From an uncultured Actinomycetota bacterium (lineage in GTDB: Bacteria > Actinomycetota > Actinomycetes > S36-B12 > UBA10799), in the NCBI GenBank assembly GCA_963732355.1, contig CAVSZD010000003.1:76370-140369 (forward strand): 64,000 bases of DNA, written 5' to 3'. Positions 9,870 through 63,556 of this stretch are shown piece after piece. The translations under genes were made by a program, and so were the position numbers. A model generated the notes under the pieces. It saw only the letters and a program-made list of their open reading frames with translations. It was not told the DNA's origin and ran no database searches. Position 1 is the stretch's first letter, and every line of letters starts with the position of its first letter.

Positions 9870-10454
9870 GTGGATGTTCAGGAGACCCAGGTCCAGACCG
9901 ATCGGATCCTAACGTTCCCTAACGTGTTGTCTGCGTTGCGTCTGCTGGGCGTACCGCTTTTCCTTTGGCTGATCCTGGTCCCGGAGGCTGACGGGTGGGC
10001 GGTTCTGCTGCTCATGGTCTCTGGCTTCACGGACTGGCTGGATGGGTACCTGGCCCGCAAGTGGAACCAGATCACCCGCGTCGGTCAGCTGCTCGACCCC
10101 ATTGCGGATCGTCTCTACATCCTGGCCACTCTCGTGGGCCTGCTCATCCGGGGGATCATCCCCTTGTGGTTCGTGGTGCTTCTTGTCTCCCGCGACCTGG
10201 TGCTGGCCGTTGTGCTGGCCATCCTGAAACGGCGCGGGATCACCGGTCTGCCGGTGCATTTCCTGGGCAAGGCCGCTACCTTCTGCCTGCTGTACGCGTT
10301 TCCGCTGCTCCTGCTCGGTGCCGGATCGACGTGGTTCGCCGAGGCGGCCAACATCCTCGGGTGGGCCTTCGCCGTCTGGGGAACCGCACTGTACTGGTGG
10401 GCCGGCGCGCTCTACATCGGCCAGGCGCGGCGCATCATGGCCTCAGCACCGTGA
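9870..10454 (+). CDS. CDP-alcohol phosphatidyltransferase (PgsA2/cardiolipin-synthase-like)
   Basis: DWLDGYLARKWNQITRVGQLLDPIADR matches the DGx2ARx8Gx3Dx3D motif. It sits upstream of the DUF881-sbp-DUF881-gcvH block, as in other actinobacteria. Confidence 0.8.
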   Translation: MDVQETQVQTDRILTFPNVLSALRLLGVPLFLWLILVPEADGWAVLLLMVSGFTDWLDGYLARKWNQITRVGQLLDPIADRLYILATLVGLLIRGIIPLWFVVLLVSRDLVLAVVLAILKRRGITGLPVHFLGKAATFCLLYAFPLLLLGAGSTWFAEAANILGWAFAVWGTALYWWAGALYIGQARRIMASAP

Positions 10455-11266
10455 GTCGCCACGTAGGCGAGAACCTGCTCGACCGGCTGATTGCGGAGGC
10501 TCAGGCCGACGACTACGCACTGGCCATCGAACAATCAGGCCAGCCCACCGCCGGTGGGGGCCGCGGGGTGGTTGGTGCACTGCTCTTCGCGGTGATCGGG
10601 CTTCTGCTGGCAGCTGCCTTCTGGCAGACACAGAGTGTGCAACCCGTGGCGGCCGAACGTCGAGCGGCGTTGGTTGGTCAGATCGAGTCGGCCACGACCG
10701 CGGCCCAGGAGGCGGAACTCCGGGCCACCACACTGCGCTCGACCGTCTCAGAACTGCAGCTACTTGCCACGCGAGGGCTCGGCGACGAGTTCGCGGATCA
10801 ACTGCGGGCGCTGGAGGTCGCATCGGGCTTCGTCGGGCTCGAGGGACCCGGTGCCGAACTGGTCATGGCCGATGGGAGCCCACCGCTACCCAAGGGGGTG
10901 GACCTCGATGAGGCCACGGTGCTGGACATCGACATGCAGACCGCGGTCAACGGTCTGTGGGAGGCTGGCGCTTACGCGATCGCCATCAACGACATCCGGC
11001 TCACCTCCATGACGGCGATCCGGACCGCAGGCCAGGCCATTCTGGTCGACTTCCGGCCGCTGGAACCGCCCTACCGGATCGCCGCCATCGGCCCGGAGGA
11101 TCTGGCCAGGCGTTTCGCCCGGACCCAGGCAAGTGATGATCTGGATCAGTTGCGCAAGGACTACGGCATACAGTCGGAGGTGGTCGCCGCCGACGCGGTG
11201 ACCGTCCCCGCTTCGACGGCGAATCTGCCGACCAAGGCGGAGGTCATGAAGGGTGGTGGCCGGTGA
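10451..11266 (+). CDS. DUF881-family membrane protein
   Basis: GTG at 10451 overlaps the upstream stop (GTGA). One TM then a coiled region and conserved C-terminal domain, paralogous to 11592-12257. The 9995 start of the ORF-track entry is an antisense/overlap artefact. Confidence 0.7.
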   Translation: MSRHVGENLLDRLIAEAQADDYALAIEQSGQPTAGGGRGVVGALLFAVIGLLLAAAFWQTQSVQPVAAERRAALVGQIESATTAAQEAELRATTLRSTVSELQLLATRGLGDEFADQLRALEVASGFVGLEGPGAELVMADGSPPLPKGVDLDEATVLDIDMQTAVNGLWEAGAYAIAINDIRLTSMTAIRTAGQAILVDFRPLEPPYRIAAIGPEDLARRFARTQASDDLDQLRKDYGIQSEVVAADAVTVPASTANLPTKAEVMKGGGR

Positions 11267-46192: not shown

Positions 46193-46340
46193 CAAAGGTT
46201 CGTCATGAACCAGATTGCCGACCTCGACGCTCCCTCCGCCACCGAAGATTGACGAGCCGTCATCACAAAGCTGTGGACAACCCCTCCGCAGAACAGGTCA
46301 ATACGGTTGTGGATGGCCAAAGCCCACCTACACTGGGCCG

Positions 46341-46580
46341 ATGAGTCGAATCTTCTGGGTCGGGGTCGGGGCCGCTGGCGGCATCGTCGCCTACCGCAAG
46401 GGCACACAGGCTGTGAACGGTGTGCGCGAGCGTTCGTTTCGCGAGAACCTGACCAAGGTCGCACGCACTGCCTCCAACGTGGCGGCTTCGGCCCGTTACC
46501 TGGCGGCGCTGTCCGCCGATGAGGAGCAGCAGGCAGGCGTGGTGGACATCCGCACGGCCCCCACCGCCGCCCGCGGGTAG
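46341..46580 (+). CDS. small conserved-looking membrane protein, unknown function
   Basis: ATG at 46341 (MSRIFWVGVGAAGGIVAYRKG...). One N-terminal TM. Located just upstream of alaS. Confidence 0.35.
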   Translation: MSRIFWVGVGAAGGIVAYRKGTQAVNGVRERSFRENLTKVARTASNVAASARYLAALSADEEQQAGVVDIRTAPTAARG

Positions 46581-46610
46581 CAGCCCCGGCCTGCAACTAG
46601 GCTGGCCCCT

Positions 46611-49283: not shown

Positions 49284-49741
49284 TGCGCAGTGGCGTGCGG
49301 CTGGCCGTCGATGTGGGCTCGGTGCGCATCGGGGTGGCACGCAGCGACGCGTCAGGCACCTTGGCGGTCCCCGAGGCCACGTTGAACGCGCGTAAAGACT
49401 GGCTGGAGGCTCTGGTCGCTCTGGCGGCCGAGTACGAGCCCTTGGAGATCATCGTGGGGCTGCCCGTCTCGCTCGACGGCCAGGAGCGGGATGCCGCAAC
49501 CCGGGCCCGAGAGAGCGCCTCGCAGATCAGCGCCAGATTGCCCGGGATCCCTGTGCGTCTGGTCGACGAGCGCCTGACAACGGTGGCAGCGCACCACCAA
49601 TTGCGCGATGCTGGGATGTCACAACGCAAGGGGCGCGCGGTTGTGGATCAAGCGGCCGCTGTCATCATGTTGCAGGAAACGCTGGACGCTGAACGCACCT
49701 CGGGACACGCCCCGGGCGCACTGATGGACGGAAACTCATGA
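49283..49741 (+). CDS. ruvX: Holliday junction resolvase-like nuclease RuvX/YqgF
   Basis: 152 aa. RLAVDVGSVRIGVARSD N-terminus, DERLTTV motif. Immediately after alaS. Confidence 0.85.
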   Translation: MRSGVRLAVDVGSVRIGVARSDASGTLAVPEATLNARKDWLEALVALAAEYEPLEIIVGLPVSLDGQERDAATRARESASQISARLPGIPVRLVDERLTTVAAHHQLRDAGMSQRKGRAVVDQAAAVIMLQETLDAERTSGHAPGALMDGNS

Positions 49742-50832
49742 GCGAACTCGGCCTGAACATGGAGGTGGAACCTCCCAGAGGCTCGGATCCGGAGAAGAAG
49801 GGCCGCGGGGCGGTCGTTTTCGCAGTGGTGATCTTCGGCGTCGTGCTGGCCGGGATCCTGGGACTGTTCCTCAAGGATCAGGTGTTCGGCGCCGAGCAGG
49901 ACTTCGCAGGCGACGGCACCGGTGAGGTGGTCGTACAGGTCGAAGCCGGCCAGACGCTGTCCGACATCGGCGTGACCCTGGCCGAGGCCGGCGTGGTGGC
50001 CAGCGACGGGTCGTTCATCGATGCGGCGGCAGCCAACGACAAGGCCCAGACCATCGCCCCCGGGTACTACACGCTGGCCAAGAGCATGAGCGGGCAGGCC
50101 GCGGTCGAAGCCATGTTGGATCCTGCCAACCGTGTCGTATCGCGGGTGGTCATCCCGGAGGGGCTGCGCCTCGACCAGGTGCTCAAGAGGTTGGAGCAGG
50201 CCACGGACATCCCGCAAGCCCGGTTGGTGGCCGCGCTGAAGGACGCCGATGCGCTCGGGCTGCCGGGATTCGCTGACGGCAACCCTGAGGGCTTCCTGTT
50301 CCCGGCCACCTACGAGTTCGCACCAGACGCGTCGGCGCGCGAGGTCATCGCCGCCATGCTGACCCGCTACAACGAAGCGGCCGACAGTCTCAAGTTCGTC
50401 CAGAGGTCCAAGAAGACCGGCTACTCGCCGTACGAGGTCATGGTGATCGCCAGTCTCGTACAGGCCGAAGGCCATCCCGACGACTACGGCAAGGTGTCCC
50501 GGGTCGTCTACAACCGACTGGCGGCAGGGATGCCGCTGCAGTTCGACGCCACGGTCAACTACGCGCTGAAGAAGTCCGAGATAAACCTCTCTCGTGACCA
50601 GATCCGCACGAAGTCCCCGTACAACACCTACGCGAACACCGGACTGCCGCCCACCCCGATCAACCAACCGGGAGAGGCAGCCATGGAGGCTGCGCTGGAG
50701 CCTGACAAGGGCGACTGGATCTACTTCGTCGCCGTCAACCCCGACACCGGGCAGACGAAGTTCACCAGCAAGTATCCGGAGTTCCTGAAGTTCAAGAGGG
50801 AGTTCGAGGACTACATCGCGGAGAACGGGTGA
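49738..50832 (+). CDS. mltG: endolytic murein transglycosylase MltG (YceG-like)
   Basis: 364 aa, N-terminal TM, ASLVQAEG and YNTY...GLPPTPI.NPG motifs. Confidence 0.85.
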   Translation: MSELGLNMEVEPPRGSDPEKKGRGAVVFAVVIFGVVLAGILGLFLKDQVFGAEQDFAGDGTGEVVVQVEAGQTLSDIGVTLAEAGVVASDGSFIDAAAANDKAQTIAPGYYTLAKSMSGQAAVEAMLDPANRVVSRVVIPEGLRLDQVLKRLEQATDIPQARLVAALKDADALGLPGFADGNPEGFLFPATYEFAPDASAREVIAAMLTRYNEAADSLKFVQRSKKTGYSPYEVMVIASLVQAEGHPDDYGKVSRVVYNRLAAGMPLQFDATVNYALKKSEINLSRDQIRTKSPYNTYANTGLPPTPINQPGEAAMEAALEPDKGDWIYFVAVNPDTGQTKFTSKYPEFLKFKREFEDYIAENG

Positions 50833-51632
50833 CCCGCAACGCGGCTGTCGTCGGTTCGCCCATTTCCCACAGTTTGTCCCCGGTTCTGCACAAAGCCGCT
50901 TATCAGGCTCTCGGGCTGGACTGGGTCTATTGGGGTCTCGAGGTCAACGAGGAACAACTGCCGGGTTTCATCGACCGGCTCGATGATTCCTGGGTCGGAC
51001 TGTCCCTGACGATGCCGTTGAAGGAGGCTGTGCTCACTCTCAGCAACGACGTGAGTTGGGCCGCGCGGGTGACCCGCTCAGCCAACACGCTGCTGTTACC
51101 GCAGCGGGCTGCGCTCAACACCGACGTCGACGGGATCGTGATGGCGTTGCGCCGGGCCGGTTTCAGCGCCCAGCCCGGGTTCACGGCCGCCATCGCTGGT
51201 GCCGGAGCCACTGCCCGCTCAGCGGTGGCCGCACTGCACGAACTCGGCGCGGGTGAGATTCACATCCTGGCCCGCAGGCCCGAAGCGGTCGATCCAGCGC
51301 GCGCTACCGCTGAGCAGATCGGGATCGATCTACAGGCACATGGGTTCGACGACCTTGCCCCGTTGGGCGCCGAGGTCGTCATCGCCACTGTCCCGTCGGG
51401 GGTGGCAGATGTGCTGACCCCGGGGATACCCGGCTCGCCCGGCTGGCTGCTCGATGTCGTGTACTCACCGTGGCCCACCGTGCTCGCGCAGGCCTGGTCA
51501 GCCCGGGGTGGTCGGATCGTCTCTGGACTGGAGATGCTGCTGGCCCAAGCCGAGCGCCAGGTTGAACTCATGACTGGACAACCCGCACCTACTGACGCCA
51601 TGCGCGCGGCGTTGCCTTCCACTCACGCCTGA
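50829..51632 (+). CDS. aroE: shikimate dehydrogenase
   Basis: 267 aa. VGSPISHSLSPVLHKAAY, SLTMPLK, NTD and GAGATARS dinucleotide-binding motifs. Confidence 0.85.
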   Translation: MTRNAAVVGSPISHSLSPVLHKAAYQALGLDWVYWGLEVNEEQLPGFIDRLDDSWVGLSLTMPLKEAVLTLSNDVSWAARVTRSANTLLLPQRAALNTDVDGIVMALRRAGFSAQPGFTAAIAGAGATARSAVAALHELGAGEIHILARRPEAVDPARATAEQIGIDLQAHGFDDLAPLGAEVVIATVPSGVADVLTPGIPGSPGWLLDVVYSPWPTVLAQAWSARGGRIVSGLEMLLAQAERQVELMTGQPAPTDAMRAALPSTHA

Positions 51633-51684
51633 GGGCTCGCGTTTCGGCCATACTCGGACAAGTACACGTGGAAAGGAATGGTCG

Positions 51685-52572
51685 ATGGCTGACATAGAGG
51701 TTCCCCAGTCTGGTGCCTCCGATATCGTCGGTCGACTGCTCAGCGACGCCCTCAGCGAGCACCCGGACGTGCAATGGCTCGGGCTGGTCTCCGAGGACGG
51801 TTTCGCTATCGCGTCCGAGGGGGCCGTGGCAGTGGACGACGATGCGGTCGCGGCGGGCGCGGTCCGGATGATGATCCAGGTGCGGACCCTGTCCAAGGCA
51901 CTCGGGCAGACGGGGACGTCGCAGATGTTCCTGGAGGGCAACGAGAGCGGCATCTGTGTCATCGACAAGGATCCGTGGGTGCTGGTCGTGGTCGGTGCGC
52001 CCGGAGTCCCCATCGGTCTATTGCGCTATGAGGCCAGGGAGATCGCAGAGGCGTTCCCGATGGGCCAGCGCGCTGCCTTGACGGCGACCCCGTACGAGAC
52101 CGATGACCAGCCAGAACCGGAGTGGTCGGTCGTTACGGGCAGCTTTCCCGACGGCTCCTTCGAGGATTCGGACCTTCAAGCAGCGGCCCCATCTGCCGAT
52201 GAGAGCGACGTGACCCGCACCGATGGTGAGGCTGAGATCCGCTGGGCCGGCGAGCCCACGGTCTTCGACGCGTCGCCAGGGTCGGACCTGTTCGGCTCGG
52301 CGGGAGCTGAGGAGATCGTGGACCTTGAGATGCCCTCCCTGGCCGACGCCACCGTGGAGGACTTCACGGGTTGGGATGCCCCGGCCCCCCTGGAACACAA
52401 TGCGATGTTCGATCTGCCTGCCCCGGACGCTGAGGTGCCGGTGTCGTTCGAGATGCCAGCTCCTGTCAGCGCGGACCAGTTCGATCTGACTGATCTGGCC
52501 CCACCGAGCGGGCCCGCGATCGACCTCCCACCGCCGGCCGGACCCGCATTCGAACTGCCGCCCCCGGAGTAG
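51685..52572 (+). CDS. Roadblock/LC7 (MglB-like) domain protein with long acidic Pro-rich tail
   Basis: The N-terminal roughly 125 aa have a Roadblock-like pattern (VQWLGLVSEDGFAIAS...MFLEGNESGICVIDKDPWVLVVV). The C-terminal roughly 170 aa are D/E/P-rich with PPSGPAIDLPPPAGPAFELPPPE repeats. Confidence 0.5.
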   Translation: MADIEVPQSGASDIVGRLLSDALSEHPDVQWLGLVSEDGFAIASEGAVAVDDDAVAAGAVRMMIQVRTLSKALGQTGTSQMFLEGNESGICVIDKDPWVLVVVGAPGVPIGLLRYEAREIAEAFPMGQRAALTATPYETDDQPEPEWSVVTGSFPDGSFEDSDLQAAAPSADESDVTRTDGEAEIRWAGEPTVFDASPGSDLFGSAGAEEIVDLEMPSLADATVEDFTGWDAPAPLEHNAMFDLPAPDAEVPVSFEMPAPVSADQFDLTDLAPPSGPAIDLPPPAGPAFELPPPE

Positions 52573-52575
52573 CCC

Positions 52576-53445
52576 ATGCTTCTGTCCGGCTCGCTCGAGG
52601 CCTTCCGCGTCCAGGATCTTCTGGGTCTGGTGGGTCGCAAGCCCGGGCAGTGGCTGATCAGTGTGAATTCCGGGCCCAAGCGGGCCTACATAGGGCTTCG
52701 AGACCGGGCTGTCGTGTGCGTCTCAGCCGACGAGGACCACGAGGATCTGGCCAGGCGGCTCGTCGTCGAAGGTGCTGTTGGCACCACGGGTCTGGCAGAG
52801 GCCATGAAGCATGCCAACGAACAGGGCCTTGGGTTGGTGCGTGCTTTGGTCGATAGCGACAGGGTGGACCCTTCCGGGATCGAGCCGATGGTACGCGCCC
52901 ACGTTGTGAGCGCGCTGGCCGCGCTGAGCCATTGGCGCACAGGGGCGTTCACCGCCGACGTCGTGGATGTGTTGCCCGACGATCTAGGTCCGGCCTTCAC
53001 TTTGGCTGACATCGGCCCCGAGGTCAGCCACCTGCTGCAGCGCTGGCGCCCCGCTTCGGACGCGCTCGGGGGCCCGAAGACGGTCATGGCCGTTTACCCC
53101 GGCCAGGTGCCCGTGCGCCTGACCGGACTGCACTCGCTCATCGACGGGCACCGCAACGTCATGGAACTCATCGAGGCCTCCGGGCACGGTGAGATCGGCA
53201 CCGTGGTGGATCTGGCCGACCTCGTCGAATCCGGGTGTGCTGCCCCGATCACGGGCAAGGTTGGAGCAGTGGAACAGCGCCTGGCGATGCTCGCGGCGAT
53301 GGAGCACTCCGGATCCAAGCGGCCCACCGAACAACCCCGCTTCTCAGTGATAGAGGGCGGCGAGAATCAGTCGAGTCCCCCTGTCGTGGCGCAGCCCGAG
53401 GACGATCTGCTCACAGCCCTGATCAAGGGGGTGCGGGGCGTATGA
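52576..53445 (+). CDS. DUF4388 (PATAN-like) domain protein
   Basis: N-terminal LSGSLEAFRVQDLLGLVGRKPGQWLISV matches the G.L..f.l.dllq...G.L pattern of DUF4388. Its stop overlaps the pilB ATG. Confidence 0.55.
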   Translation: MLLSGSLEAFRVQDLLGLVGRKPGQWLISVNSGPKRAYIGLRDRAVVCVSADEDHEDLARRLVVEGAVGTTGLAEAMKHANEQGLGLVRALVDSDRVDPSGIEPMVRAHVVSALAALSHWRTGAFTADVVDVLPDDLGPAFTLADIGPEVSHLLQRWRPASDALGGPKTVMAVYPGQVPVRLTGLHSLIDGHRNVMELIEASGHGEIGTVVDLADLVESGCAAPITGKVGAVEQRLAMLAAMEHSGSKRPTEQPRFSVIEGGENQSSPPVVAQPEDDLLTALIKGVRGV

Positions 53446-55106
53446 AGCAACTGGGCGAGATCCTCGTGTCCCAAGGCCTGATCAGCCACGACCAGTTGGA
53501 CAAGGCGCTCACCGAGCAGCGCGGGGCAGGACACTCCCTGGGCAGAGTCCTGATCGATCTCGGGATCCTCACGGAGTCGCAAGTCGTGCAGGCCCTGGCA
53601 GCCCAGATCGGGATGCGATTCGTGGATCTCACCGAGTTCACCCTCGACGGCGCGGCGCTGACGAAGGTGCCCGGCAGCGTGTGCCGTCGACATAGTTCCA
53701 TCCCCATCGGTTTTGAGAATGGCCGTCTGCTGGTGGCGATGAGTGACCCGGCGAACGTCTTCGCCATCGATGACATCCGCTCGGCCAGTGGCATGAGTGT
53801 CCAGGCCGTGGTCGCCACACGCACCGACGTACAGGCGGCGCTCGACCGGCACTACCGGGCCGACGGCGAGCTGGATGAGTTGACGACCGCTCTGGACGCC
53901 GACGAGGAGGACGAGGACCTCGCATCCATCAAAGAGGTCGTCGAGGACGCTCCCATCGTCAAGTTCGTGAACCTGCTGATCACGCAGGGTATACAGGACC
54001 GTGCCTCAGACATCCATCTCGAACCGACCGAGTTCGATCTGCGGGTGAGATATCGCATCGACGGCGTCCTGCACGAAGTGATGCGCTCACCGAAGTCCAT
54101 ACAGTCCGGGGTCATCAGCCGTCTGAAGATCATGTCGGACATCAACATCGCCGAGAGGCGTATCCCGCAGGACGGCCGGATGAGCGTGACCGCCAACGGC
54201 CAGAAGATCGACCTGCGCGTCGCGACCCTGCCCACGGTCTGGGGCGAGAAGATCGTCCTGCGGATTCTGGACAACTCCACGGCGATGCTGGACCTTGCCG
54301 ACCTGGGCTTCCGCGACGTCAACTACGAGCGATACTCGGCCAGTTTCGGCAAGCCGTACGGGATGATCCTCGTTGTGGGCCCGACGGGATCGGGCAAGTC
54401 GACGACGTTGTACGCGACCGTGAACATCCTCAACCGCCCTGAGGTCAATGTCATCACCGTCGAGGACCCCGTGGAGTACCGGTTGGCGGGGGTCAACCAG
54501 GTGCAGACCCACGCCAAGGCAGGCCTCACGTTCGCTGCAGCGTTGCGATCGATCCTGCGCTCCGACCCTGACATAGTGCTCATCGGTGAGGTCCGCGACC
54601 ATGAGACGGCCCAGATCGCGGTCGAGTCCGCGTTGACCGGCCACCTCGTTCTGTCCACGTTGCACACCAACGACGCACCGAGCGCGATCACCCGGTTGAT
54701 CGAGATGGGGATCGAACCGTTCCTGGTCGGATCGGCGGTCGACTGCGTGCTCGCCCAGCGCCTGGCCCGGCGGTTGTGCCCCAAATGCAAAGAGGCCTAC
54801 CAGCCCACGGTGGCAGCGTTGCAGGCTGCCGGACTAGCGCTGGAGCCCGGGCAGAGTCCGCCGCGGATCTACCGGCCGGTCGGCTGCTCAGTCTGTTCGC
54901 GCACCGGTTACAAGGGCCGTGTGGCCCTGCACGAGGTGCTGCCGATCACCGAACGCATCGAGCACCTGGCCGTCGAGCGGGCATCCTCTGCCACCATTGC
55001 GCTCGCCGCCCGGGAAGAGGGCATGCAGACACTTCGTCAGGACGGTCTGGCCAAGGTGCTGGCTGGCGTCACCAGTCTGGACGAGGTCCTTCGCGTCGTC
55101 GCCTGA
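53442..55106 (+). CDS. pilB: type IV pilus assembly ATPase PilB (GspE family)
   Basis: ATG at 53442 (ATGA overlap). MshEN-like N-terminus (LGEILVSQGLISHDQLDKAL), [13 protein letters not shown] Walker A, tetracysteine CPKC...CSVC motif. Confidence 0.9.
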   Translation: MKQLGEILVSQGLISHDQLDKALTEQRGAGHSLGRVLIDLGILTESQVVQALAAQIGMRFVDLTEFTLDGAALTKVPGSVCRRHSSIPIGFENGRLLVAMSDPANVFAIDDIRSASGMSVQAVVATRTDVQAALDRHYRADGELDELTTALDADEEDEDLASIKEVVEDAPIVKFVNLLITQGIQDRASDIHLEPTEFDLRVRYRIDGVLHEVMRSPKSIQSGVISRLKIMSDINIAERRIPQDGRMSVTANGQKIDLRVATLPTVWGEKIVLRILDNSTAMLDLADLGFRDVNYERYSASFGKPYGMILVVGPTGSGKSTTLYATVNILNRPEVNVITVEDPVEYRLAGVNQVQTHAKAGLTFAAALRSILRSDPDIVLIGEVRDHETAQIAVESALTGHLVLSTLHTNDAPSAITRLIEMGIEPFLVGSAVDCVLAQRLARRLCPKCKEAYQPTVAALQAAGLALEPGQSPPRIYRPVGCSVCSRTGYKGRVALHEVLPITERIEHLAVERASSATIALAAREEGMQTLRQDGLAKVLAGVTSLDEVLRVVA

Positions 55107-55169
55107 CCCCGCGGCTGCCTCAAGGCCATCCGTGGATGTGCCGACACCGACTGTGAGTCCTCGTGGAGG

Positions 55170-56317
55170 TTGTCGATGTCGGTTCAGAACATGCACGCGC
55201 CCCCGGTTCCAGCGCGGCCAACCACCGAACAGCAGGTGCAAGCCGGCGACATCAGCCTGGTCCAGGCACTTGAAGCCATGTTGGATCTCGGCGCGAGTGA
55301 CCTGCACCTGACCGCGGGTGCACCCCCGACGGTGCGCGTCGCGGGCAACTTGCAGCCTCTGACGGGGGCCCCGCGCATGGATCCCGCTGCGCTGCAACGG
55401 GTGCTGTACGCGATGCTCACGCAGGAGCAGCGGGAGACCTTCGAACAAGCACTCGAACTCGACTTCTCCTACGCGCTGCCAAGGCGTGCTCGGTTCCGCG
55501 TGAACCTCTACCGGCAGCGCGACGCTCTCGGGGCGGCCTTCCGCATGATTCCCGTACGAGATCAAAGACCTCGACTCGTTGGGCATCCCGCCGGCCGTGG
55601 CGAACTTCGCTTCACTGCCGCGTGGGTTCGTTCTGGTGACCGGACCAACCGGTTCGGGCAAGAGCACGACGCTGGCGGCCCTCATCGACATCGTCAATAC
55701 GAACCGTCACGACCACATCATGACCGTCGAGGATCCCATCGAGTTCCTGCACCGGCACCGCAACTGCCTTGTGAACCAGCGCGAGGTCGGTCACGACACC
55801 CACTCGTTCGCTGAGGCGCTCAAGCACGTACTGCGCCAGGACCCCGACGTCATCCTGGTCGGGGAGATGCGTGACCTCGAAACGATCCAGGTTGCGCTCA
55901 CCGCCGCTGAGACCGGCCACCTGGTGTTCGCAACCCTGCACACCCAGGACGCGGCGCAGACCATCGACCGCATCATCGACGTCTTCCCGCCGCATCAACA
56001 GCAGCAGATCCGCCAGCAACTGGCGGGGACTCTTGCAGGGCGTCGTGTGCCAGACCTTGTGCAAGACCGTTGATGGGCGGGGCCGTGTAGCCGCGGCGGA
56101 GGTTCTGGTCGCCACACCGGCCATTCGCAACCTCATCCGTGAAGGGAAGACCCACCAGATCTACTCCGCCATGCAGGCGGGTGCGAAGTTCGGGATGCAG
56201 ACCATGGACCAGAACCTGGCTGAGCTCGTCCGGCGCAACAAGATCACCTACGAACTCGGGGTGGACAAATGCCATCACGTGGAGGACTTCAACCGGCTCA
56301 TGGGTAGGACCTCATGA
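55170..56317 (+). pseudogene. pilT: twitching-motility ATPase PilT, frame broken twice (+1 at about 55553-55555 and +1 at about 56032-56036)
   Basis: Three successive overlapping ORFs (55170-55814, 55579-56073, 55871-56317) each carry consecutive PilT segments: GASDLHLTAG...AFRMIP | [30 protein letters not shown] | LQGVVCQTL...ATPAIRNLIREGK. Confidence 0.85.
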
Positions 56318-57534
56318 GCCTGGCCACCTTCGACTATCAAGTCCGCGACCGGAGCGGCAAACTCGTTCGCGGGCGCATCGACGCGGAGTCGGCGTCCGTG
56401 GTGGCGACGAAGCTCAAGGGTATGGGGTACGCGCCGATCTCCATCGCCGAGGCGAACGCGGGCCTGAACAAGGAACTCCACATCCCGGGGATGGGAACGA
56501 AGGTCAAGCTGAAGGACCTCGCAATATCGTCGCGCCAGTTCGCAACGATGATCAACTCCGGGCTGTCCCTGCTGCGCGCTCTGTCCATCCTCGCCGAACA
56601 GACGGAGAACAAGAAGCTCGCGGAGGTCTTCGCCTCGGTGCGGATCGCGGTCGAGCAAGGGTCCTCGTTGTCCCAGGCGCTCGGACAGCACCCCGACGTC
56701 TTCCCGCCGATCATGGTCAACATGACCCGGGCGGGGGAGACCGGCGGGTTCCTGGACACCGTCTTGCTGCAACTGGCGGAGAACTTCGAGGCCGAGGTCA
56801 AACTGCGTTCCAAGATCAAGTCAGCGATGACCTACCCGGCGGTTGTCTTCGGCTTCGCGATCATCTCGATGACTGCGATGCTGCTGTTCATCGTTCCTGT
56901 ATTCGCCGGCCTGTTCGACAGTCTCGGCGGGGTGCTGCCGCTGCCCACCCGCATACTCGTGGCGCTGTCCTCGATGCTGAAGATGATGATGCCCGTCTTC
57001 ATCGTTCTGCTCATCGTCGGGATGACGCTCTGGCGCAAGTACAAGAACGACCCGCGAGTTCGAAACGTCGTCGATCCGATGAAACTCAAGGCGCCCGTCT
57101 TCGGTTCCCTGTTCCAGAAGGTCGCGTTGTCGCGCTTCAGCCGCAACCTCGGCACGATGATCCACGCGGGCGTACCGATCCTGCAGTCGCTGGACATCGT
57201 CGCCGACACCACCGGGAACGTGGTGATCGCCAGAGCCGTGCAGGACGTGGAAAAGTCGGTACGACAGGGCGAGTCCCTGGCCGCGCCACTGGTCAACCAC
57301 GACGTGTTCCCGTCGATGGTCGTGCAGATGATGGCGGTCGGGGAGGACACCGGTGCCCTCGACGCGATGCTGCACAAGATCTCCGACTTCTACGATGCGG
57401 AGGTGGAGGCCACGACTGAGGCGCTGACCTCCATCATCGAGCCGATCATGATCGCCGTGGTGGGCGGCATGATCGGGGCCATGATCGTGGCCCTGTACAT
57501 GCCGATCTTCAAGATCTTCGACCTGATTAAGTAG
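56314..57534 (+). CDS. pilC: type IV pilus inner-membrane platform protein PilC (GspF family)
   Basis: 406 aa. Two T2SSF repeats (LSLLRALSILAEQTEN..., VPILQSLDIVADTTGN...), three TM regions. Confidence 0.9.
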   Translation: MSLATFDYQVRDRSGKLVRGRIDAESASVVATKLKGMGYAPISIAEANAGLNKELHIPGMGTKVKLKDLAISSRQFATMINSGLSLLRALSILAEQTENKKLAEVFASVRIAVEQGSSLSQALGQHPDVFPPIMVNMTRAGETGGFLDTVLLQLAENFEAEVKLRSKIKSAMTYPAVVFGFAIISMTAMLLFIVPVFAGLFDSLGGVLPLPTRILVALSSMLKMMMPVFIVLLIVGMTLWRKYKNDPRVRNVVDPMKLKAPVFGSLFQKVALSRFSRNLGTMIHAGVPILQSLDIVADTTGNVVIARAVQDVEKSVRQGESLAAPLVNHDVFPSMVVQMMAVGEDTGALDAMLHKISDFYDAEVEATTEALTSIIEPIMIAVVGGMIGAMIVALYMPIFKIFDLIK

Positions 57535-57555
57535 GCGGTTGGCGCAATTATAATA

Positions 57556-57583
57556 ATAAAAAATTAAAAAAAAAATTATTAAG
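57556..57583 (+). repeat. left copy of the terminal imperfect direct repeat (AT-A6-TT-A10-TTATTAAG)
   Basis: Compare with 60053-60074 (AT-A5-TT-A9-TAAG). Same order of elements, differing by one A in each homopolymer and a TTAT insertion. Confidence 0.55.
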
Positions 57584-57736
57584 TTTGTAAAAAAATTCGT
57601 CCTCTCCGCAAGGACAGGTGTACGTGCCGAAAGCTGAGGTTATCAGCGACGATCAATGCTCTGACGCATAGCCGTGATCGATCAGGATATTCCAATGCTG
57701 ACAGACGCTGTCGTTATAATACGCTGCCAGTGTTTC

Positions 57737-57923
57737 GGTGATGATGTAAATATTGATAGGAAAAAAATAAAATAATTAAGTTTGTTTTGAAGAAAAATGT
57801 AAATAGAGTGAAAGAGTAATTTATGTGTGAAAATGAAAGAGATTAGTTGAAAAATGTTTAATTTTGTTTGTAGTATAATTATGAATGATTATGTTTTATT
57901 AAGATAAGTGGTGTATGTTTGTT
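57737..57923 (+). other. C-free tract (187 nt, 0 C)
   Basis: Manual scan: only A, G and T on the + strand. Confidence 0.85.
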
Positions 57924-57999
57924 CAGATGCTCGATTGTGGACGTCAAGATCGTATATGTGATTCTCTCTCGACCTCAGTATGAGTCGCTGAAGAGATTC

Positions 58000-58616
58000 G
58001 AGATGGTATGTAATAAAAGAAATTTAATAAGTTAGATGAGATAAAAAATTGAAAAAAATTTTGAAGTTTATAAAAATAATAAAGAGTAATGAACGGTGAG
58101 GAAAAGGAAAGGAAGAGTGATTGGAAATAAGGATGAAAATAGAGATAGATGTAGTGATGGAAATAAAGAATGAAAAATAATTTTATATAAAGTTGAAAGA
58201 AGTTGAAGAAGGAAAGATGAATAAAATATTAGATGATAATGTGATGGATGATGTAATTAGAAAGAAGATAAATAAAATGAAAGAATTAAAGTAGTAGAAT
58301 TGTAGGAAGTATATGGAATTTAAGTAAAAAATTAGAAATAAATGATAAGAAATAATATTATTGAGAGAAGAGTGTGATTGAATGAAATGTAGGATATAAT
58401 GAATTGTAATTAAGAAAAGTGTAGAAGATTAAGGATATTAGGTGGATAAAAGATGTGAAATATGATGGATTATATAGTAGATGGAGTTTAAAAATTGAAA
58501 TGATTTAGAAAATGGATGGAAATTTAAATATGGGATAGGTATACTAAATTTGATTAGTGTTTGAGATATACTGAGAAATATAAATGATGTTGATTGAAGA
58601 AGTGGTGTGAGAATAT
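58000..58616 (+). other. C-depleted tract (617 nt, 3 C; 58095-58543 has none)
   Basis: Manual scan: C only at 58094, 58544 and 58571. Example 58101-58160 = 28 A, 21 G, 11 T, 0 C. Confidence 0.85.
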
Positions 58617-58761
58617 CCTGATGGCGATGACCAAGTGGATGTGACGGCGCGGCTCGAACGCGGCGTCATCCCAGTTTATGAATGCCGGTGTTTACAGGGT
58701 GTTATAGTGAAGTTTACGTTGAAAGGACTGGCTGTTCGAGGTAAGGCGGAGATGACCTTCC

Positions 58762-58986
58762 ATAGAGAAGTGAGATAAAAAGAGGAAATTAGTAAATTGT
58801 TTAAAGGTTGAATGGTAGTATATTGAAGAATAAGAATGTGAAAATTAGAATGTGAAAAAAGGTAAAAGAAAGTAGAAGTTGAGAAAATTTGTAGTAGTAA
58901 AGATATATTAGTGAATGAGAAAGATATAAGTTTAGGAAATGAGATAAGGATAATTTAATGATGATGGAGTAGAATTTGTTAAATTG
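58762..58986 (+). other. C-free tract (225 nt, 0 C)
   Basis: Manual scan. Confidence 0.85.
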
Positions 58987-59059
58987 CGGCGTAGTCCCGT
59001 CGATTGGGTTGCTGCGTGGCCCATCAGTGTAAGATTCTACAGCTGCCAGTCGATCAAGC

Positions 59060-59199
59060 GAATATATATAATATAGGAAATAAGTATGAGTAAAAGGATA
59101 ATATAATATAAGAAGAGATATGTTTGAGAATTTGATTATTGAAATAAAAAGAAATGAATTTGAATGAAAGAATAAGAGTTGTAGTAAGGAAGAAAAAGT
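59060..59199 (+). other. C-free tract (140 nt, 0 C)
   Basis: Manual scan. Confidence 0.85.
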
Positions 59200-59396
59200 C
59201 GTTGAACCACTTGATGTGCGGCTTCACGGAGGCATGCGAGCATTTGAAGTTCTCGTTACGTATATGATCGGCCGAGCGTTCGCGAGTCGAAACTGGCATT
59301 ATAGCCTGTAAAGAGGCTAGTGCGGAATGCTTGATGAGTATTACGCGTTATCGCGGACGCGTAGCTGTGGAACGATGGTTGCGAGGTGATGAGGTC

Positions 59397-59506
59397 TTGT
59401 GAAATTATATGTAGAAGTTGTATAGAGATATAGAATTTTAATGATTAGAGATTGAGACTGAAATAGTTATTGGAAATTTGGATAATTTAGTAAAGTTGGT
59501 TAAATG
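59397..59506 (+). other. C-depleted tract (110 nt, 1 C at 59458)
   Basis: Manual scan. Confidence 0.85.
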
Positions 59507-60052
59507 CGTAGCAGGGGTGCCAGTGCCGATCCGGTCAATAAAATATAATTATTTTCGACCGTTTCCGTCGACGAACAGGATGTGGAATGGTCAATCGAAC
59601 TGGGTTTCGTGAGCGACTGCTGATACCAGGACCGGTAGATTCAGTCGCGATTTCATGAACGTGGAAGAGGTCGCTTCATCGCGTGGGCAACGACTCGTGT
59701 TACGTGTGGATTGCTGCGATACGAAGTAACGGCGCTCCGCGGATCCCGCCTGGCGGATTTAGCCTAATCAATAGTTTCTAGCGATAACGCTGCGATTGAT
59801 CGTTCAGTAGAATGGCTGCATAGAGAAGTTACCAGTGCATGCGATGGTGTATGATTCAAGAATCAGTACAGCAAGCAGCGTAGTTTCCATTGACTCGTAC
59901 TTCAAGAACGGTATGGCGTTGGCTGAACGGAGGCAAACGCAATCGGAGCTTGGCGGATATGGTTCACGGAACTCGACGTATCTATTCTTCGCAGCAGAAT
60001 CCTGACATCTTGGTGACGGCGGTATTCCGCTGCTAAATGATGATTCGTTAAT

Positions 60053-60074
60053 ATAAAAATTAAAAAAAAATAAG
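60053..60074 (+). repeat. right copy of the terminal imperfect direct repeat (AT-A5-TT-A9-TAAG)
   Basis: See 57556-57583. It ends exactly where the tniB remnant begins. Confidence 0.55.
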
Positions 60075-60808
60075 TGACGGGCGGCGCCGGGTTCGGGAAG
60101 ACCGCGATCAGCGTCGGTTTCCTGCGCGTATACGAGCAGGAATGCGGCCGCGTACCCGGCCGCGTTCGCGCAGGAGAACGAGTTATCCCAGTTGCCTACT
60201 CCAGTCTGCTGCGCGGCGCCGGACTGAAATCGCAAATGCAGCACATCCTCGGGTTCTTCGGGCATCCGATGCCCGGTCGGCCAGCGGCGCGCAACTCGCC
60301 GACGAACTCATAAGGTCCTAATCTGTGCCGCACGAAGATTCTCTGCCTCGATCAAGCGCAAAACCTGCACGTCGGGAACCGCAAAGACGAGGAGTCGCCG
60401 CCTACCTGAAAGAGATCATGGACGCCGCGCACGTCGCGTTGATTCTCACCGGAATCGACATTGACCAGGCAGGGCCGCTGGCCATGCCGAGCAGCGGTAG
60501 GCGGCTGCAAACAGTAACGACCGGGTGCAGTTGGCCCGCCGCTTCGCCGTCGTCAAGATACGTCCCCTCGCACTAGGGTCTACAGCGTGGCAAGACCTCA
60601 TGGCTAGTATCGAGCGGCAACTCGTCCTGGCGAAAGCCCGCCCGGCGACCTATCTCAATCGTTGGCGAACCTTGTCTGGGAACTGAGCAACGGGGCGATT
60701 GGGGTGGCGTTCAACCTGCTTCGTGTCGCCGCGAACACGGCGATCAGTGACGTGATCGAGCGATCACCGGCAGACTCTGCGTGCCACCGCGAGGACCTTG
60801 GAGGCTGA
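60074..60808 (+). pseudogene. tniB: TniB/TnsC-like AAA+ transposition ATPase remnant, N-terminally truncated, with several frameshifts and in-frame stops
   Basis: Segments in different frames read, in order: GGAGFGKTAI (Walker A), IPVAYSSL..LKSQMQHILGFFGHP, SGAQLADELIRS, KILCLDQAQNLHVGNRK (Walker B-like, E replaced), GVAAYLKEIMDAAHVALILTGIDID, DRVQLARRFAVVKIRPL, LANLVWELSNGAIGVAFNLLRVAANTAI. This order is typical of TniB. A tniQ-like gene follows. Confidence 0.6.
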
Positions 60809-60834
60809 CCGACTCGGCCGTGGGAAGGTGTCGC

Positions 60835-61883
60835 ATGACCGTCACCCACTACGCACTTCTGCCCGATACGAACCTTCCGGTGGCCGTCCACCCCGTACCT
60901 GGGGAGACGTTTCACTCGTGGACGTTGCGGCTGGCCGAACGCCTCGGCGTGGAACCGATACGTGCCCTGAAAGCAATCGGATACGTGAGCAGTCACGTAC
61001 GAAGCCGCGCAAACTGACCTCCTACGGCATCACAGCCACCGACCAGTCCATCGGCGAAATGTCCCGCACAACCCGCGCCCGAAGCAGCAGTGCGAGCAAC
61101 CTGCTCACCGTGTTCGACGGCGGCCCCGCCGCCTTCGGTGACTACACGCTCGGCAAGCCAGGAGCCGTCCGCCGCCTCGCGACCCGAACTGGCTGCACCT
61201 CGGCACCAGCACCTGCTGCCGACTGCCTACGTGCAAGCGGAAACGCTTGGCACCTCACGTGGCGGCTCCCATGGCAGACCATGTGCACCGAACACGGCAC
61301 GCTGATGGTCGCGACCTGCCCCGCGTGCCGCCTGCCGTTCAACGCAGGTAGCCGCAGAGACGGCACCTCGGACCGCGCACCAGCAACCTGCCCTCCCCGC
61401 CGACAGATGCGCGAACCGCTCGACACGGAACACCGCACCCCTACCCGCCACTGTGCGGCCACCCTACGCGGACATCCCCACGACCGTCTGCACTCAACCG
61501 GCAGTCGTCGCCACCAAACCAGGTCGACGCGCTCCTGGCCGTTGGGTACCGCGACCAGAATCACGAGTGGTGGCAAGACCTCCGCACCGTCACCGCGACA
61601 CTGCTCAGCCACGGCGACCCCGCCGTGATCCTCAACTACCTGCCGGTCTACCCGACCTCGCCGAGCACTCGGTCGATGAGCACTACGCGGCCAGGAACCG
61701 CGTTGACGCGGAACGCTCCAGCATCACGAACGGCGGTGGAGACCACCGCACCGCGTCCCGCCGCCGCACCTACTGGGACACCATAACAACCCGCCCTCAT
61801 CGCCGCGATCCTGCCTTACGCCATCGCGGTACTCCACGACCTCGACCACATCCCGGAATCTTGAGCGGCGATGCCAGCCGCTG
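60835..61883 (+). pseudogene. tniQ: TniQ-family protein remnant (frameshifted; 3' limit uncertain)
   Basis: ATG at 60835 after GGAAGGTG. The N-terminus LPVAVHPVPGETFHSWTLRLAERLGV fits the TniQ pattern P.pgE...SW..RLA. The frame stops at 61017 and the next frame continues with KLTSYGITATDQSIGEMSRTT and the zinc-finger region WHLTWRLPWQTMCTEHGTLMVATCPACRLPF (61248-61340). Further frames are needed downstream. Confidence 0.5.
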
Positions 61884-62145
61884 GTGGACATTGACGCCGT
61901 GGACCTTCTCGATGAGATGGTGCGCGGTCGCGGCCACAACCTCACCACCGAGTTTCGGCAACGCGCAGCGAGCGACACGCTCATCAGCCGCCTATCCACG
62001 CGAAGCCGCTACAACCCGCTCGCCGGGCAACCGGGGCACGCGGCAACAATCCGACAACGGCTATTATCGTCACCAGGTCACAACGGCGGTAGAAATCCTG
62101 GAATCCCTGGGAGCCGTCAAGGCAGTCCGAACGGAGGCAGGCGCG

Positions 62146-62550
62146 ATGAAGCATGTGAGCCTCACCACCGAGGCGTTCCTTCTCCTCCGCCCGGACGCAC
62201 CCAGTGCGGCGACCGCGCAGAACATCACACACAACACCATGATTGGGTCGCCCGGAGGCTCCCAATCGGTGGTGGCGACCGCCACACTGCACCAGCCTAT
62301 TCCCGGGGGACTACTCGCTGGATTGGCGGAACTCGAAGCGGAATTCACAAGCCCTCACATGCGAACCGTCTACGGGGAACTGGTAGACGAAACGCGAGAG
62401 GCGGCCACCAGCGGAGACCAAGGTCGGATCGCCAAAGCCCTAGCGAAGATCAAGCACTTCCTGTCAATGGTCGCTGTCGATGCAGCGTCGCAACTCACGA
62501 TTGCCGGGGCCGCGCAACTCCCCGCCATCGTGCAGAGCCTCAACTCGTGA
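62146..62550 (+). CDS. small hypothetical protein with ITHNTMIGSPGGSQSV motif (paralogue of 63125-63556; possibly 5'-truncated)
   Basis: ATG at 62146, 8 nt after GGAGG (62133-62137). Similarity to the wHTH-like part of the third gene extends upstream of this ATG (TTAVEILESLGAVKAVR), so the ancestral start may be lost. Confidence 0.4.
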   Translation: MKHVSLTTEAFLLLRPDAPSAATAQNITHNTMIGSPGGSQSVVATATLHQPIPGGLLAGLAELEAEFTSPHMRTVYGELVDETREAATSGDQGRIAKALAKIKHFLSMVAVDAASQLTIAGAAQLPAIVQSLNS

Positions 62551-63128
62551 GCGGTCCTCAAGCGCTCTTTGCGATAGATCAGTGCATCGTGATCGCAGCA
62601 GCCGACGCTAGCGACAATCACCACGCTGACGTGTCGGTTTTCCTCGCCGCCGCAGCAGAAGCCGGAGCACGGATCGGCGTTGCCACCACGCTGCAACAAG
62701 ACCTCAACAGAGCGCCAACCGAGCGACGCGACAAGATTCTGGCATTCGTCAAAGACCAATCGTGGAAGGTGCTACCGGGCTTATTCACCCTGGACTACTC
62801 CCCGCTGCCAGATGACGACGACGAGATGGCCGACCTGCTAGCCGAGGAACCCCTCAGCGAGCAGGTCACCGACCTTATCGCAGACCCATCCCACCCCGCA
62901 TGCGACACACATGCCTACCACGACTACCACCATTACGAAGCAGCCGTACGAAACCAGGCGACGGCGTTCGTTACCAGCGACAAGAAGTTCATCAAAGGAA
63001 TGCGCCAGTTCGAGAAACTGCCCGTGCCGATCATTCAGCCCCCAGAAGCAATTTCACTGCTTCGGAGCGATGCGGTGCCGAGTCAATCAACGCCGTCCGC
63101 CCCTGAGGACACCCTGGAGCACGCATGA
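62547..63128 (+). CDS. PIN-like domain protein (193 aa)
   Basis: GTG at 62547 overlaps the upstream stop (GTGA). N-terminal ALFAIDQCIVIAAAD and C-terminal ATAFVTSDKKFI resemble the first and last acidic motifs of PIN-like nucleases. The assignment is from pattern only. Confidence 0.35.
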   Translation: MSGPQALFAIDQCIVIAAADASDNHHADVSVFLAAAAEAGARIGVATTLQQDLNRAPTERRDKILAFVKDQSWKVLPGLFTLDYSPLPDDDDEMADLLAEEPLSEQVTDLIADPSHPACDTHAYHDYHHYEAAVRNQATAFVTSDKKFIKGMRQFEKLPVPIIQPPEAISLLRSDAVPSQSTPSAPEDTLEHA

Positions 63129-63556
63129 CCAAGAAACTCACCGAACTGGAAGCCGACATACTCCAGTGGTGGCTACAAGAAGCCACCCGCGGCAGAGCAA
63201 ACCGTCGCGTCATAGCCGAGGAGTACCTGAAAGCAACCCCGGACATTGCCGCGTCCCAATTCGCATCTGCCGTCGACGCGCTGGAAGCCTTCGGTCTCGT
63301 CACGCCCACCCGCGCGTGGGGAGGACATGTGTACCGTGTTTGCCTCACGCCGCAAGCACTCATCCTCGGACGAGAAGACCAGGGTGGCCCCACCATTCAC
63401 AACACCGTGCACAACACCATGATCGGCTCGCTCGGCGGGCAGCAAACTGTTCACGAAGCCGCCAGCGCCACCGATCACGCTACGGACGGACAGGAGGGAA
63501 CGCGTACCCTGCTGGATCGTGATACGGGCACAGACGCCACGACTGCTTCGGGCTGA
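63125..63556 (+). CDS. small wHTH-like hypothetical protein with VHNTMIGSLGGQQTV motif
   Basis: ATG at 63125 overlaps the upstream stop (ATGA). 143 aa. SAVDALEAFGLVTPTRAWGGHVYRVCLTPQALILG resembles a winged-helix wing. Disordered T/D-rich tail. Confidence 0.45.
   Translation: MTKKLTELEADILQWWLQEATRGRANRRVIAEEYLKATPDIAASQFASAVDALEAFGLVTPTRAWGGHVYRVCLTPQALILGREDQGGPTIHNTVHNTMIGSLGGQQTVHEAASATDHATDGQEGTRTLLDRDTGTDATTASG

Follow-up and report, generated by a model that had tools for sequence, protein, structure and literature searches.

The cytosine-poor block at 57546-60073 of the window (the whole stretch of 64,000 nucleotides that was analysed, from a contig of an uncultured Actinomycetota bacterium) is probably a data artefact and no genetic element: it would be the res, tnsA-like and tniA genes of a mobile element with C and G lost. 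Judged from alignments, those pieces of the block that can be mapped are colinear with the genes that related elements carry between pilC and tniB.

Composition and boundaries of the block

The intact pilC gene (406 aa; 56314-57534, + strand, as are all features below) is the last gene common to the same-species relatives, and its stop codon was confirmed at 57532-57534. It is followed by a junction of 11 nt with normal composition (57535-57545), where a strain-specific insertion begins at about 57536. Upstream, positions 46314-57535 share 98.9% DNA identity with the same-species L161 over 11.2 kb, and homology stops 1 nt past the pilC stop (at 57535 for L161 and at 57537 for L068). The affected zone is thus a strain-specific insertion: a look at the pilC locus of sister genomes, proposed in an earlier note on this DNA as a way of finding the block again, showed the insertion to be absent from both L161 and L068.

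Across 57546-60073, seven C-poor tracts alternate with six islands of about 50% GC. The tracts, 1,358 nt in total, hold just four C (at 58094, 58544, 58571 and 59458) and are 47% A and 28% T; C is absent over as many as 449 nt in succession (58095-58543), compared with a maximum of 24 nt elsewhere in the window. The islands contain all four bases at 46-57% GC, and the host about 65%. Recomputation returned the tract and island coordinates and composition given in the earlier note, and the ORF gap that it reported at 57535-59053 holds even at a threshold of 50 aa, with no ORF of at least that length found there. Dinucleotide statistics reject an i.i.d. random sequence for the block. Codon periodicity was found in none of the tracts or islands (p 0.19-0.95; chi2 = 307 for pilC), which is expected, as deletions scramble reading frames, and a Pfam search of the ORFs inside the block gave no match.

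The right boundary at 60073, where the block had been said to end, does not mark the end of the anomaly, since C-biased single-base deletions go on at a lower rate to about 62065. The GTG at 60074 does open onto the Walker A motif GGAGFGKT as described, yet it is codon 111 of tniB and no start codon.

Several classes of known element were also searched for. Rfam returned no match at E up to 10; ARAGORN found no tRNA or tmRNA in the block; islands 1-4, folded as RNA in either orientation, scored z from -1.0 to +0.45, with no fold signal; and direct and inverted repeats were limited to A-rich matches at chance level. A structured non-coding RNA, CRISPR array, retron, DGR or integron was rejected in view of the lack of any covariance-model match, repeat array or stable fold (islands 1-4 folded). 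Against plasmids, phages and E. coli genomes, blastn of the block produced merely two to four trivial AT-rich matches, and an exact 24-mer of island 6 was absent from the metagenome contigs searched.

Colinearity with res, tnsA-like and tniA

In the delete-C test, every C was removed from a reference, to which the tract was then aligned, and z was computed against shuffles. Tracts 2, 3 and 4 scored 7.4, 19.0 and 9.2, respectively, while the raw, C>A, C>T and C>G models scored about 0-4; on the homologous intervals the C>T model gave z from -1.2 to 4.4, and C>A, C>T and C>G letter substitution produced no signal against the window and 80 loci. Of each tract, 79-86% can be read off its reference interval as a subsequence in unchanged order, a share that beats all 200 shuffles and all non-homologous intervals. 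Deaminase-type hypermutation (APOBEC, RIP, DddA) was rejected, as the C>T fit fails and the tract content of A (47%) and T (28%) is incompatible with it.

In two reference elements, L095 and L162, the matches of all six islands and of tracts 2-5 run through res, tnsA-like and tniA in the same order as in the block, and the colinear mapping of the block stops exactly at the start of tniB homology. Tract 1 (57546-57597; 0 C and 2 G in 52 nt) reads as an A/T skeleton of the Type III res; its best skeleton match in 8 kb of L095 (8266-8348) is also in order and adjoins the island 1 match on the upstream side, but is weak and not significant alone (z 0.7). Island 1 (57598-57736) is noisy res sequence matching L095 8349-8508 (blastn E 5e-8), with 21% of C and 18% of G lost. 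Tract 2 (57737-57923) is res minus C, placed at L095 8509-8850 by the delete-C model only; its longest common subsequence with the reference spans 86% of the tract (z 8.1). Island 2 (57924-57999), again noisy res, corresponds to L095 8851-8941 (87% over a 30-nt core).

Tract 3, the longest (58000-58616), is res minus C and matches L095 8942-10010, with a longest common subsequence of 528/617 (z 15.1) and losses of 92% of C, 44% of G, 5% of A and 8% of T. Island 3 (58617-58761) is the noisy 3' region of res (L095 9999-10166, E 3e-19), and tract 4 (58762-58986) the 3' end of res plus the start of the TnsA-like gene, minus C (L095 10167-10519; longest-common-subsequence z 8.6). The TnsA-like gene continues, noisy, in island 4 (58987-59059; L095 10520-10596, E 1e-3, colinear), minus C in tract 5 (59060-59199; L162 7154-7411, z 6.2; L095 10591-10848, contiguous with the island 4 match) and, noisy once more, in island 5 (59200-59396; L095 10837-11080, z 9.2; L162 7409-7629, z 4.8).

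Tract 6 (59397-59506) has no significant colinear match to the reference elements and is unplaced; it sits where the flanking anchors suggest that about 1.2-1.3 kb of reference is missing, namely the 3' end of the TnsA-like gene and the 5' half of tniA. Island 6 (59507-60046) aligns to both references as noisy tniA, encoding a DDE (rve) transposase: 59507-59780 corresponds to L162 8932-9261 (z 10.9) and 59781-60046 to L162 9263-9599 (z 12.9), and the same two pieces map to L095 12360-13023 (z 13.3 and 13.6). Tract 7 (60047-60073), of A and T only and too short to place, lies at a gap of about 0.7 kb that, going by the anchors at L162 9599 and 10329, would have held the 3' end of tniA and tniB codons 1-110.

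A Tn7-like element downstream of pilC

Positions 60074-60838 carry tniB codons 111-369 with 12 single-base deletions. Once the 12 bases are restored, a 258-aa TniB results that has no internal stop, reaches the stop codon of its homologues and is 94% identical to the TniB of L095 (domains PF05621 and PF13401) and 96.8% to that of P0166. Protein identity to intact homologues is 94-97% and DNA identity 79-89%, with no excess of substitutions; the frameshifts of tniB are therefore not evolutionary, and the gene is not decayed as the earlier note had supposed. The N-terminal two-thirds of tniQ follow at 60918-62065, with many single-base deletions; this interval matches L162 tniQ (PF06527), a weak Pfam match is present in a window ORF, and TniQ proteins were the sole matches in a protein-collection search, which was incomplete in that it missed a 199-aa protein. 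Over 60075-62065, the alignment to L162 10329-12356 is 88.6% identical and contains 35 deletions and a single insertion, the deleted bases being 24 C, 7 T, 4 G and 3 A.

Clean sequence resumes at 62066-63556 with the 3' part of a 199-aa gene, then two intact genes of 193 aa (62547-63128) and 143 aa (63125-63556). The exact 193-aa and 143-aa proteins are also encoded on two independent short-read contigs, which hold about 3.6 kb extra between tniQ and these genes; the same element occurs on independent short-read contigs with an intact TniQ of 598 aa. Logan contigs from ERR12035938 and ERR15459710 show the gene order that would be expected of the zone in intact form: res (perhaps with mod), tnsA-like, tniA (about 737 aa), tniB (about 367 aa), tniQ (about 570-600 aa), a 207-aa gene and an SLFN/AlbA_2-HATPase gene.

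By gene content and order, the underlying element is Tn7-like, with Type III res, TnsA-like, tniA, tniB, tniQ and cargo in succession. A Walker A AAA+ ATPase of the TniB/TnsC type is present once restored, a DDE (rve) TniA/TnsB lies upstream of it, as a fragment that is unreadable as protein, and a TniQ/TnsD lies downstream. Gene order and sequences are those of the Tn7-like/Tn5053-type modules in L095 and L162, and insertion directly downstream of the conserved pilC resembles that of Tn7 at glmS, but the genes are unreadable in the window, unlike those of the intact elements. Cargo differs among copies, with Type III restriction-modification (R-M) here and in L095 and Type I R-M plus SIR2 in L162. 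Tracts 1-4 and islands 1-3 together correspond to the 3' two-thirds of the L095 res (PF04851, ResIII helicase plus endonuclease); those domains are present in the L095 homologue, whereas the window holds only their C-depleted image, without mod and the 5' third of res, and the remainder is untranslatable. The left end of the element lies within the corrupted zone and the right end beyond the window.

Pattern of base loss

In the tracts, C is down by about 91% and G by about 47%, while A and T are kept in order. The two end tracts have lost about 95% of G, and C loss ranges from about 91 to 100% across tracts; in the islands 25% of C and 16% of G are gone, and in tniB and tniQ about 3% of C, with deletions there at about 1.7% overall. 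Loss strength shifts abruptly from segment to segment. With the succession of A and T preserved, what remains in the tracts amounts to A/T/G skeletons of real genes. All along the zone the loss hits C far harder than G, which points to a single strand as the source.

Retention of a base in the tracts is independent of its neighbours: A with G or C on both sides is kept in 96% of cases, and C in 0-1% in every context. At the A and T positions of the tracts, divergence is no greater than in the flank. Half of the deletions in tniB and tniQ fall at isolated bases, outside homopolymers. Beyond single bases, the sequence also lacks four longer pieces, of 0.7 to 3.6 kb.

Origin of the pattern

The reading we consider probable is that a Tn7-like element sits directly after pilC in this strain and that the zone from 57546 to about 62065 would have undergone a strand-specific process of loss that acts on each base separately and by deletion only. 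Its source would be a low-coverage, strain-variable region of a long-read metagenome assembly, low coverage being expected at a strain-specific insertion. The contig would there be supported by essentially a single raw read, from one strand (coverage, strand and quality all being inferred), with a stretch so catastrophically bad that other reads could neither align to it nor polish it. The closest relatives are Nanopore-only MAGs made with Flye and Medaka (PMC12313526), and Nanopore MAGs under about 40x coverage still contain indels that shift reading frames, while effects specific to cytosine have been described at read level (PMC9262707). Low-coverage Nanopore-only assemblies likewise show deletion-dominated errors that break conserved genes, worst at low coverage (PMC9262707, PMC12313526).

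Here too, indels break genes otherwise under purifying selection: on the same contig the core genes pilB and pilT are frameshifted relative to L161, as is tniB relative to its homologues. Ordinary errors of Nanopore reads vary with k-mer context and homopolymers, whereas those in the zone are neither homopolymer-concentrated nor context-dependent. The loss is also far greater than in residual Nanopore errors (91-100% of C over hundreds of nt) and is strongly strand-asymmetric, with kb-scale skips. A literature search found no paper on context-independent loss of one base type that spares neighbouring A and T. To our knowledge, neither dye-channel dropout in PacBio nor Illumina chemistry fits a loss of C plus G.

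The memoryless character of the loss, with piecewise-constant parameters and very sharp boundaries, is what a script would produce, and it is conceivable, if unlikely, that the corruption arose in silico or after deposition, through deliberate or accidental damage to a copy of the public contig. The public protein collection contains proteins encoded on both clean flanks of the 352,509-bp source contig, but ORFs specific to the corrupted zone were not found in it, a negative weakened by start-codon choice and the incomplete search. Such damage would, however, leave intact res, tnsA-like, tniA, tniB and tniQ at this locus in the public record, and the relevant clusters yielded no TniQ, TniA or TnsA-like protein in intact form from the source contig, nor was an intact TniB of that contig among the 15 members of the TniB cluster listed. 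Moreover, graded C-biased deletions (about 1.7%) and kb-scale gaps appear too elaborate for a simple decoy, and a truncated PilB of 289 aa deposited from the same contig indicates that the pilB frameshifts are genuine parts of the record. We rate considerably lower a real scar in vivo, in which strand-specific removal of cytosines destroyed the integrated R-M and Tn7-like element in one event. A single-stranded DNA cytosine deaminase with uracil glycosylase and translesion synthesis skipping abasic sites might act in this way, as might resynthesis by a skipping polymerase under depletion of dCTP and dGTP. The loss is indeed strand-coordinated, specific to C and partly to G, arranged in sharp-bordered clusters and limited to a mobile element, and pure deletions without a substitution excess fit one event better than slow decay. 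APOBEC kataegis, fungal RIP and deaminase toxins are likewise C-specific, strand-coordinated and clustered on mobile DNA, but yield C>T at modest density, a model that fails for the tracts, where deletion of C approaches 100%; kb-scale gaps and frameshifted core genes point to data quality, and the same element is intact elsewhere. We know of no biological process by which about 100% of one base disappears across hundreds of nt and the A and T next to it are left alone.

Natural decay of a dead transposon through AT-biased mutation and deletional bias is more improbable still. The element is broken and shortened, and a deletional bias is general in bacteria, but restored TniB has no excess of amino-acid change despite 12 frameshifts, tract A and T positions have diverged no more than the flank, and 35 deletions to 1 insertion, C-specific and often at isolated bases, do not form a neutral spectrum. 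Least credible of all are the readings of the block as a non-coding element of foreign origin, as an insert from a vector or a synthetic construct, as a chimeric join, as a template or transcript unit specific to one strand (proposed in the earlier note and at odds with the lack of Rfam matches, fold signal and repeats) or as an insertion-edited cryptogene. The alien composition and the lack of ORFs and of matches in plasmid, phage and E. coli collections would suit them; set against this are the homology and colinearity with res, tnsA-like and tniA, the absence of Rfam families, tRNA, folds and repeat architecture, and the continuity of both junctions with the element's neighbours. The C-insertion cryptogenes of Physarum mitochondria and the U-insertion cryptogenes of kinetoplastids similarly lack one nucleotide type in a functional sequence, but they are organellar and eukaryotic and would not also miss kb-scale segments and half their G; no sign of transcripts or editing machinery is seen here.

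With a data artefact as the preferred reading, the earlier suspicion of one pointed in the right direction, although the colinearity with res, tnsA-like and tniA argues against a chimera, vector or synthetic insert. The proposal of a foreign non-coding element gives way to these same genes with almost every C and roughly half of G deleted. Nor did the block replace tniA and the 5' end of tniB, as had been suggested: tniA itself is there, corrupted, alongside kb-scale gaps. The reported lack of likeness to the transposon remnant on the right is borne out in composition and not in sequence, the block being contiguous with that element. The remark that such AT-rich DNA would attract Lsr2 silencing loses its point if no DNA of this form exists.

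Implications

For quality control, the case matters in that a 4.5-kb zone of a long-read MAG contig (57546-62065) takes the place of real genes that span about 12 kb or more. Annotation would turn such zones into AT-rich non-coding DNA and pseudogenes, and tallies of pseudogenes, 'decayed transposons' and xenogeneic islands would come out too high; alignment after deletion of one base offers a cheap screen for them. A scar in vivo, if true, would be a bacterial counterpart of the RIP and APOBEC genome defences that leaves deletions in place of substitutions, and the sequence, if real, would reveal a hitherto unknown DNA-level process stripping cytosines from mobile DNA. As biology, the block is most likely unimportant, as no 'alien mosaic' remains when its sequence is taken for res, tnsA-like and tniA short of C and G.

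Results

Base counts in the block between the pilC stop and the tniB remnant (57546-60073) gave four C in 1358 nt, summed over its seven tracts (57546-57597, 57737-57923, 58000-58616, 58762-58986, 59060-59199, 59397-59506 and 60047-60073), and the six alternating islands (57598-57736, 57924-57999, 58617-58761, 58987-59059, 59200-59396 and 59507-60046) are of 46-57% GC. The alternation of C-poor tracts and four-base islands described in the earlier note was thus borne out, as was its absence of ORFs from 57535 to 59053, where none of at least 50 aa was found. The longest run without C is 449 nt in the block versus at most 24 nt elsewhere in the 64-kb window. The tracts consist of ~47% A, 28% T and 23% G, with G nearly gone as well from both terminal tracts. 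No codon periodicity was detected in any tract or island (for comparison, chi2 = 307 for pilC), and a Pfam search of the ORFs inside the block returned no match. Dinucleotide counts show too little GG and CC and too much CG for i.i.d. random sequence, which rules out this identity for the block.

Readings of the block as a structured non-coding RNA or a known element found no support: it contains no Rfam family at E up to 10, no tRNA or tmRNA and no repeat architecture, and the predicted folds of islands 1-4, taken on both strands, are no more stable than those of shuffled sequence. Comparison of the block with plasmid, phage and E. coli collections yielded no meaningful similarity, and the metagenome collection contained no copy of a 24-mer of island 6.

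The host is a Nanopelagicales-type actinobacterium. Its 46314-57535 region is 98.9% identical to a locus of the same species (L161; ENA ERZ25039462 contig_32292) and 89.5% identical to that of an MFD MAG (L068), with homology ending one and three bases, respectively, past the pilC stop; this break marks a strain-specific insertion in the window's strain, starting at ~57536. Neither relative carries the block, which the earlier note had proposed to look for in sister genomes; both harbour instead, in this order 3′ of pilC, DUF222, a phosphatase, pilin genes, pilD and pilMNO. In L095 (Ga0208938_1001123), a carrier of a related transposition module whose PilC is 79% identical to that of the window, pilC is followed by Type III mod, Type III res (858 aa), a TnsA-like gene, tniA (rve), tniB and tniQ, and the right flank of the window aligns with these tniB/tniQ genes from 60075 (L095 13755). 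Compared with L095, the window also lacks mod and the 5′ third of res. A closer relative of the module, L162 (TniB 96.8% identical), encodes TnsA-like (244 aa), TniA (737 aa), TniB (367 aa) and TniQ (572 aa) proteins, with a Type I restriction-modification (R-M) system upstream.

Islands 1-4 match L095 colinearly at 8348-8437, 8871-8900, 9999-10166 and 10530-10596, respectively; the spacing between these anchors in the window is only 0.55-0.64x of that in L095. Global alignment of tracts 2-4 with the L095 intervals gave no signal under raw, C>A, C>T or C>G models (z ~0-4); with all C removed from the reference, the three tracts scored z = 7.4, 19.0 and 9.2, and their colinearity became visible. 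By an assumption-light measure, 79-86% of each tract is an in-order subsequence of its homologous interval (z 4.6-15.1), a share reached by none of 200 shuffles and by no non-homologous interval. The remaining pieces were placed by alignment tolerant of C/G deletion: tract 5 and island 5 fall in the TnsA-like gene, and islands 6a (59507-59780) and 6b (59781-60046) in tniA (z 11-14 against both L095 and L162). The best A/T-skeleton match of tract 1 lies directly 5′ of that of island 1 (z 0.7), while tracts 6 (110 nt) and 7 (27 nt) had no placement and sit where ~1.2 and ~0.7 kb of reference, respectively, are missing. As judged from these alignments, the tracts are the same genes as in the related elements, with C deleted; the colinear matches to res, the TnsA-like gene and tniA contradict the proposal of a foreign non-coding element.

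Loss was scored per zone as the fraction of reference bases deleted. The tracts have lost 542 of 598 C (91%; those not counted as deleted are mostly alignment mismatches), 283 of 609 G (47%), 4% of A and 6.5% of T, with 12 insertions; the islands 25% of C, 16% of G, 13% of A and 8% of T, with seven insertions; and the right flank (60075-62065) 3.1, 0.8, 0.8 and 2.4%, respectively, with two. Retention is unaffected by neighbours: A with G/C on both sides is kept at 96%, C at 0-1% whatever the context, and G beside C no less than elsewhere. When the right flank was aligned to L162 separately, with affine gaps, 35 deletion events and one insertion were counted, with C making up 24 of the 38 deleted bases, about half of which are isolated and outside homopolymers. 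Together, the zone spectra, the context independence and the 35:1 ratio point to a deletion-only, per-base, strand-asymmetric process (C loss far above G loss) of piecewise-constant strength. Loss reaches far past the block, to ~62065, beyond which the sequence is clean again.

Insertion of N at 12 deletion sites in 60074-60838 restored an uninterrupted 258-aa TniB that shares its stop with the L095 protein and is 94% identical to it and 96.8% to an intact homologue (P0166), the DNA being just 79-89% identical. A pseudogene with 12 frameshifts acquired by age would, given the usual substitution-to-indel ratio, hold many non-synonymous changes too. No such excess is seen, which contradicts evolutionary pseudogene decay of tniB, called decayed in the earlier note. 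The GTG at 60074 is codon 111 of tniB and no start codon.

The exact 193-aa (62547-63128) and 143-aa (63125-63556) proteins also occur on two independent short-read (Logan) contigs, from ERR12035938 and ERR15459710, in the order TniB′, TniQ (598 aa), 207-aa gene, SLFN/AlbA_2-HATPase (516 aa, minus strand), 199-, 193- and 143-aa genes. The tniQ start lies 5870 nt from the 143-aa gene there versus ~2205 nt in the window, thus ~3.6 kb is missing near 62065. A row of three small genes (~199, 193 and 143 aa), each overlapping the next by 4 nt, occupies 62066-63556; the 199-aa-type and 143-aa genes have the motif 'HNTMIGSxGGxQ' in common, and a Pfam search of the window ORFs over all three returned no match.

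Discussion

The corrupted zone coincides exactly with the strain-variable insertion. In the core flank, four indels relative to L161 were found in 11.2 kb, all single-base (53378, 55244, 55549 and 56031; region 52576-56317), splitting pilT into three frames and pilB into two (289 aa + 623 aa). Since the public protein collection lists the truncated 289-aa PilB on the 352,509-bp source contig, frameshift errors or pseudogenes are already part of the deposit, which is an indel-prone assembly. The L068 pilC has its own single-base indel (~10376) that yields two ORFs (10001-10828 and 10386-11222), indicating that such errors are common among assemblies of this family. The closest relatives were assembled from Nanopore reads only, by Flye --meta followed by one round of Medaka (PMC12313526), and Nanopore MAGs below ~40x coverage retain frameshifting indels, with cytosine-specific effects at the read level (PMC9262707).

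A chain of inference makes a low-coverage, single-read assembly error the most likely cause of the block. An insertion present in a minor strain would be of low coverage, and the contig path across it could rest on a single raw read of a single strand; such a path would account for the strand asymmetry, for the raw-read-like deletion rate (~1.7%) in tniB/tniQ and for a catastrophic stretch beyond alignment and polishing by other reads. The main weakness of this explanation is that, to our knowledge, no documented Nanopore error mode drops one base type regardless of context. A real cytosine-removing event is a highly improbable origin. Corruption in silico, also unlikely but less so, stays a rival to the single-read error: ORFs specific to the corrupted version were not found in the protein collection, where the word-indexed search also missed the expected 199-aa protein of the Logan contigs, and neither were intact TniQ, TniA or TnsA-like proteins from the source contig, as looked for in the relevant clusters. 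The anomaly is genuine in the sequence string, yet most probably no feature of any genome.

In two lineages whose PilC proteins are only 79% identical (the window and L095 5706-15702), a Tn7-like module (TnsA-like, TniA, TniB and TniQ) directly follows the pilC stop. Cargo around the same transposition module is variable and includes many defence genes: Type III R-M (L095 5886-10320 and the window), TIR, Type I R-M and SIR2 (L162 250-6878 and 13877-15649), Fic (related locus L163, 8323-9675) and SLFN/AlbA_2-HATPase (Logan contigs). The presence of the module in two lineages and its absence from L161 and L068 suggest that a TniQ-guided element attaches at a site 3′ of pilC. What underlies the block is an ordinary Tn7-like element that carries restriction-modification genes as cargo and is inserted 3′ of pilC.
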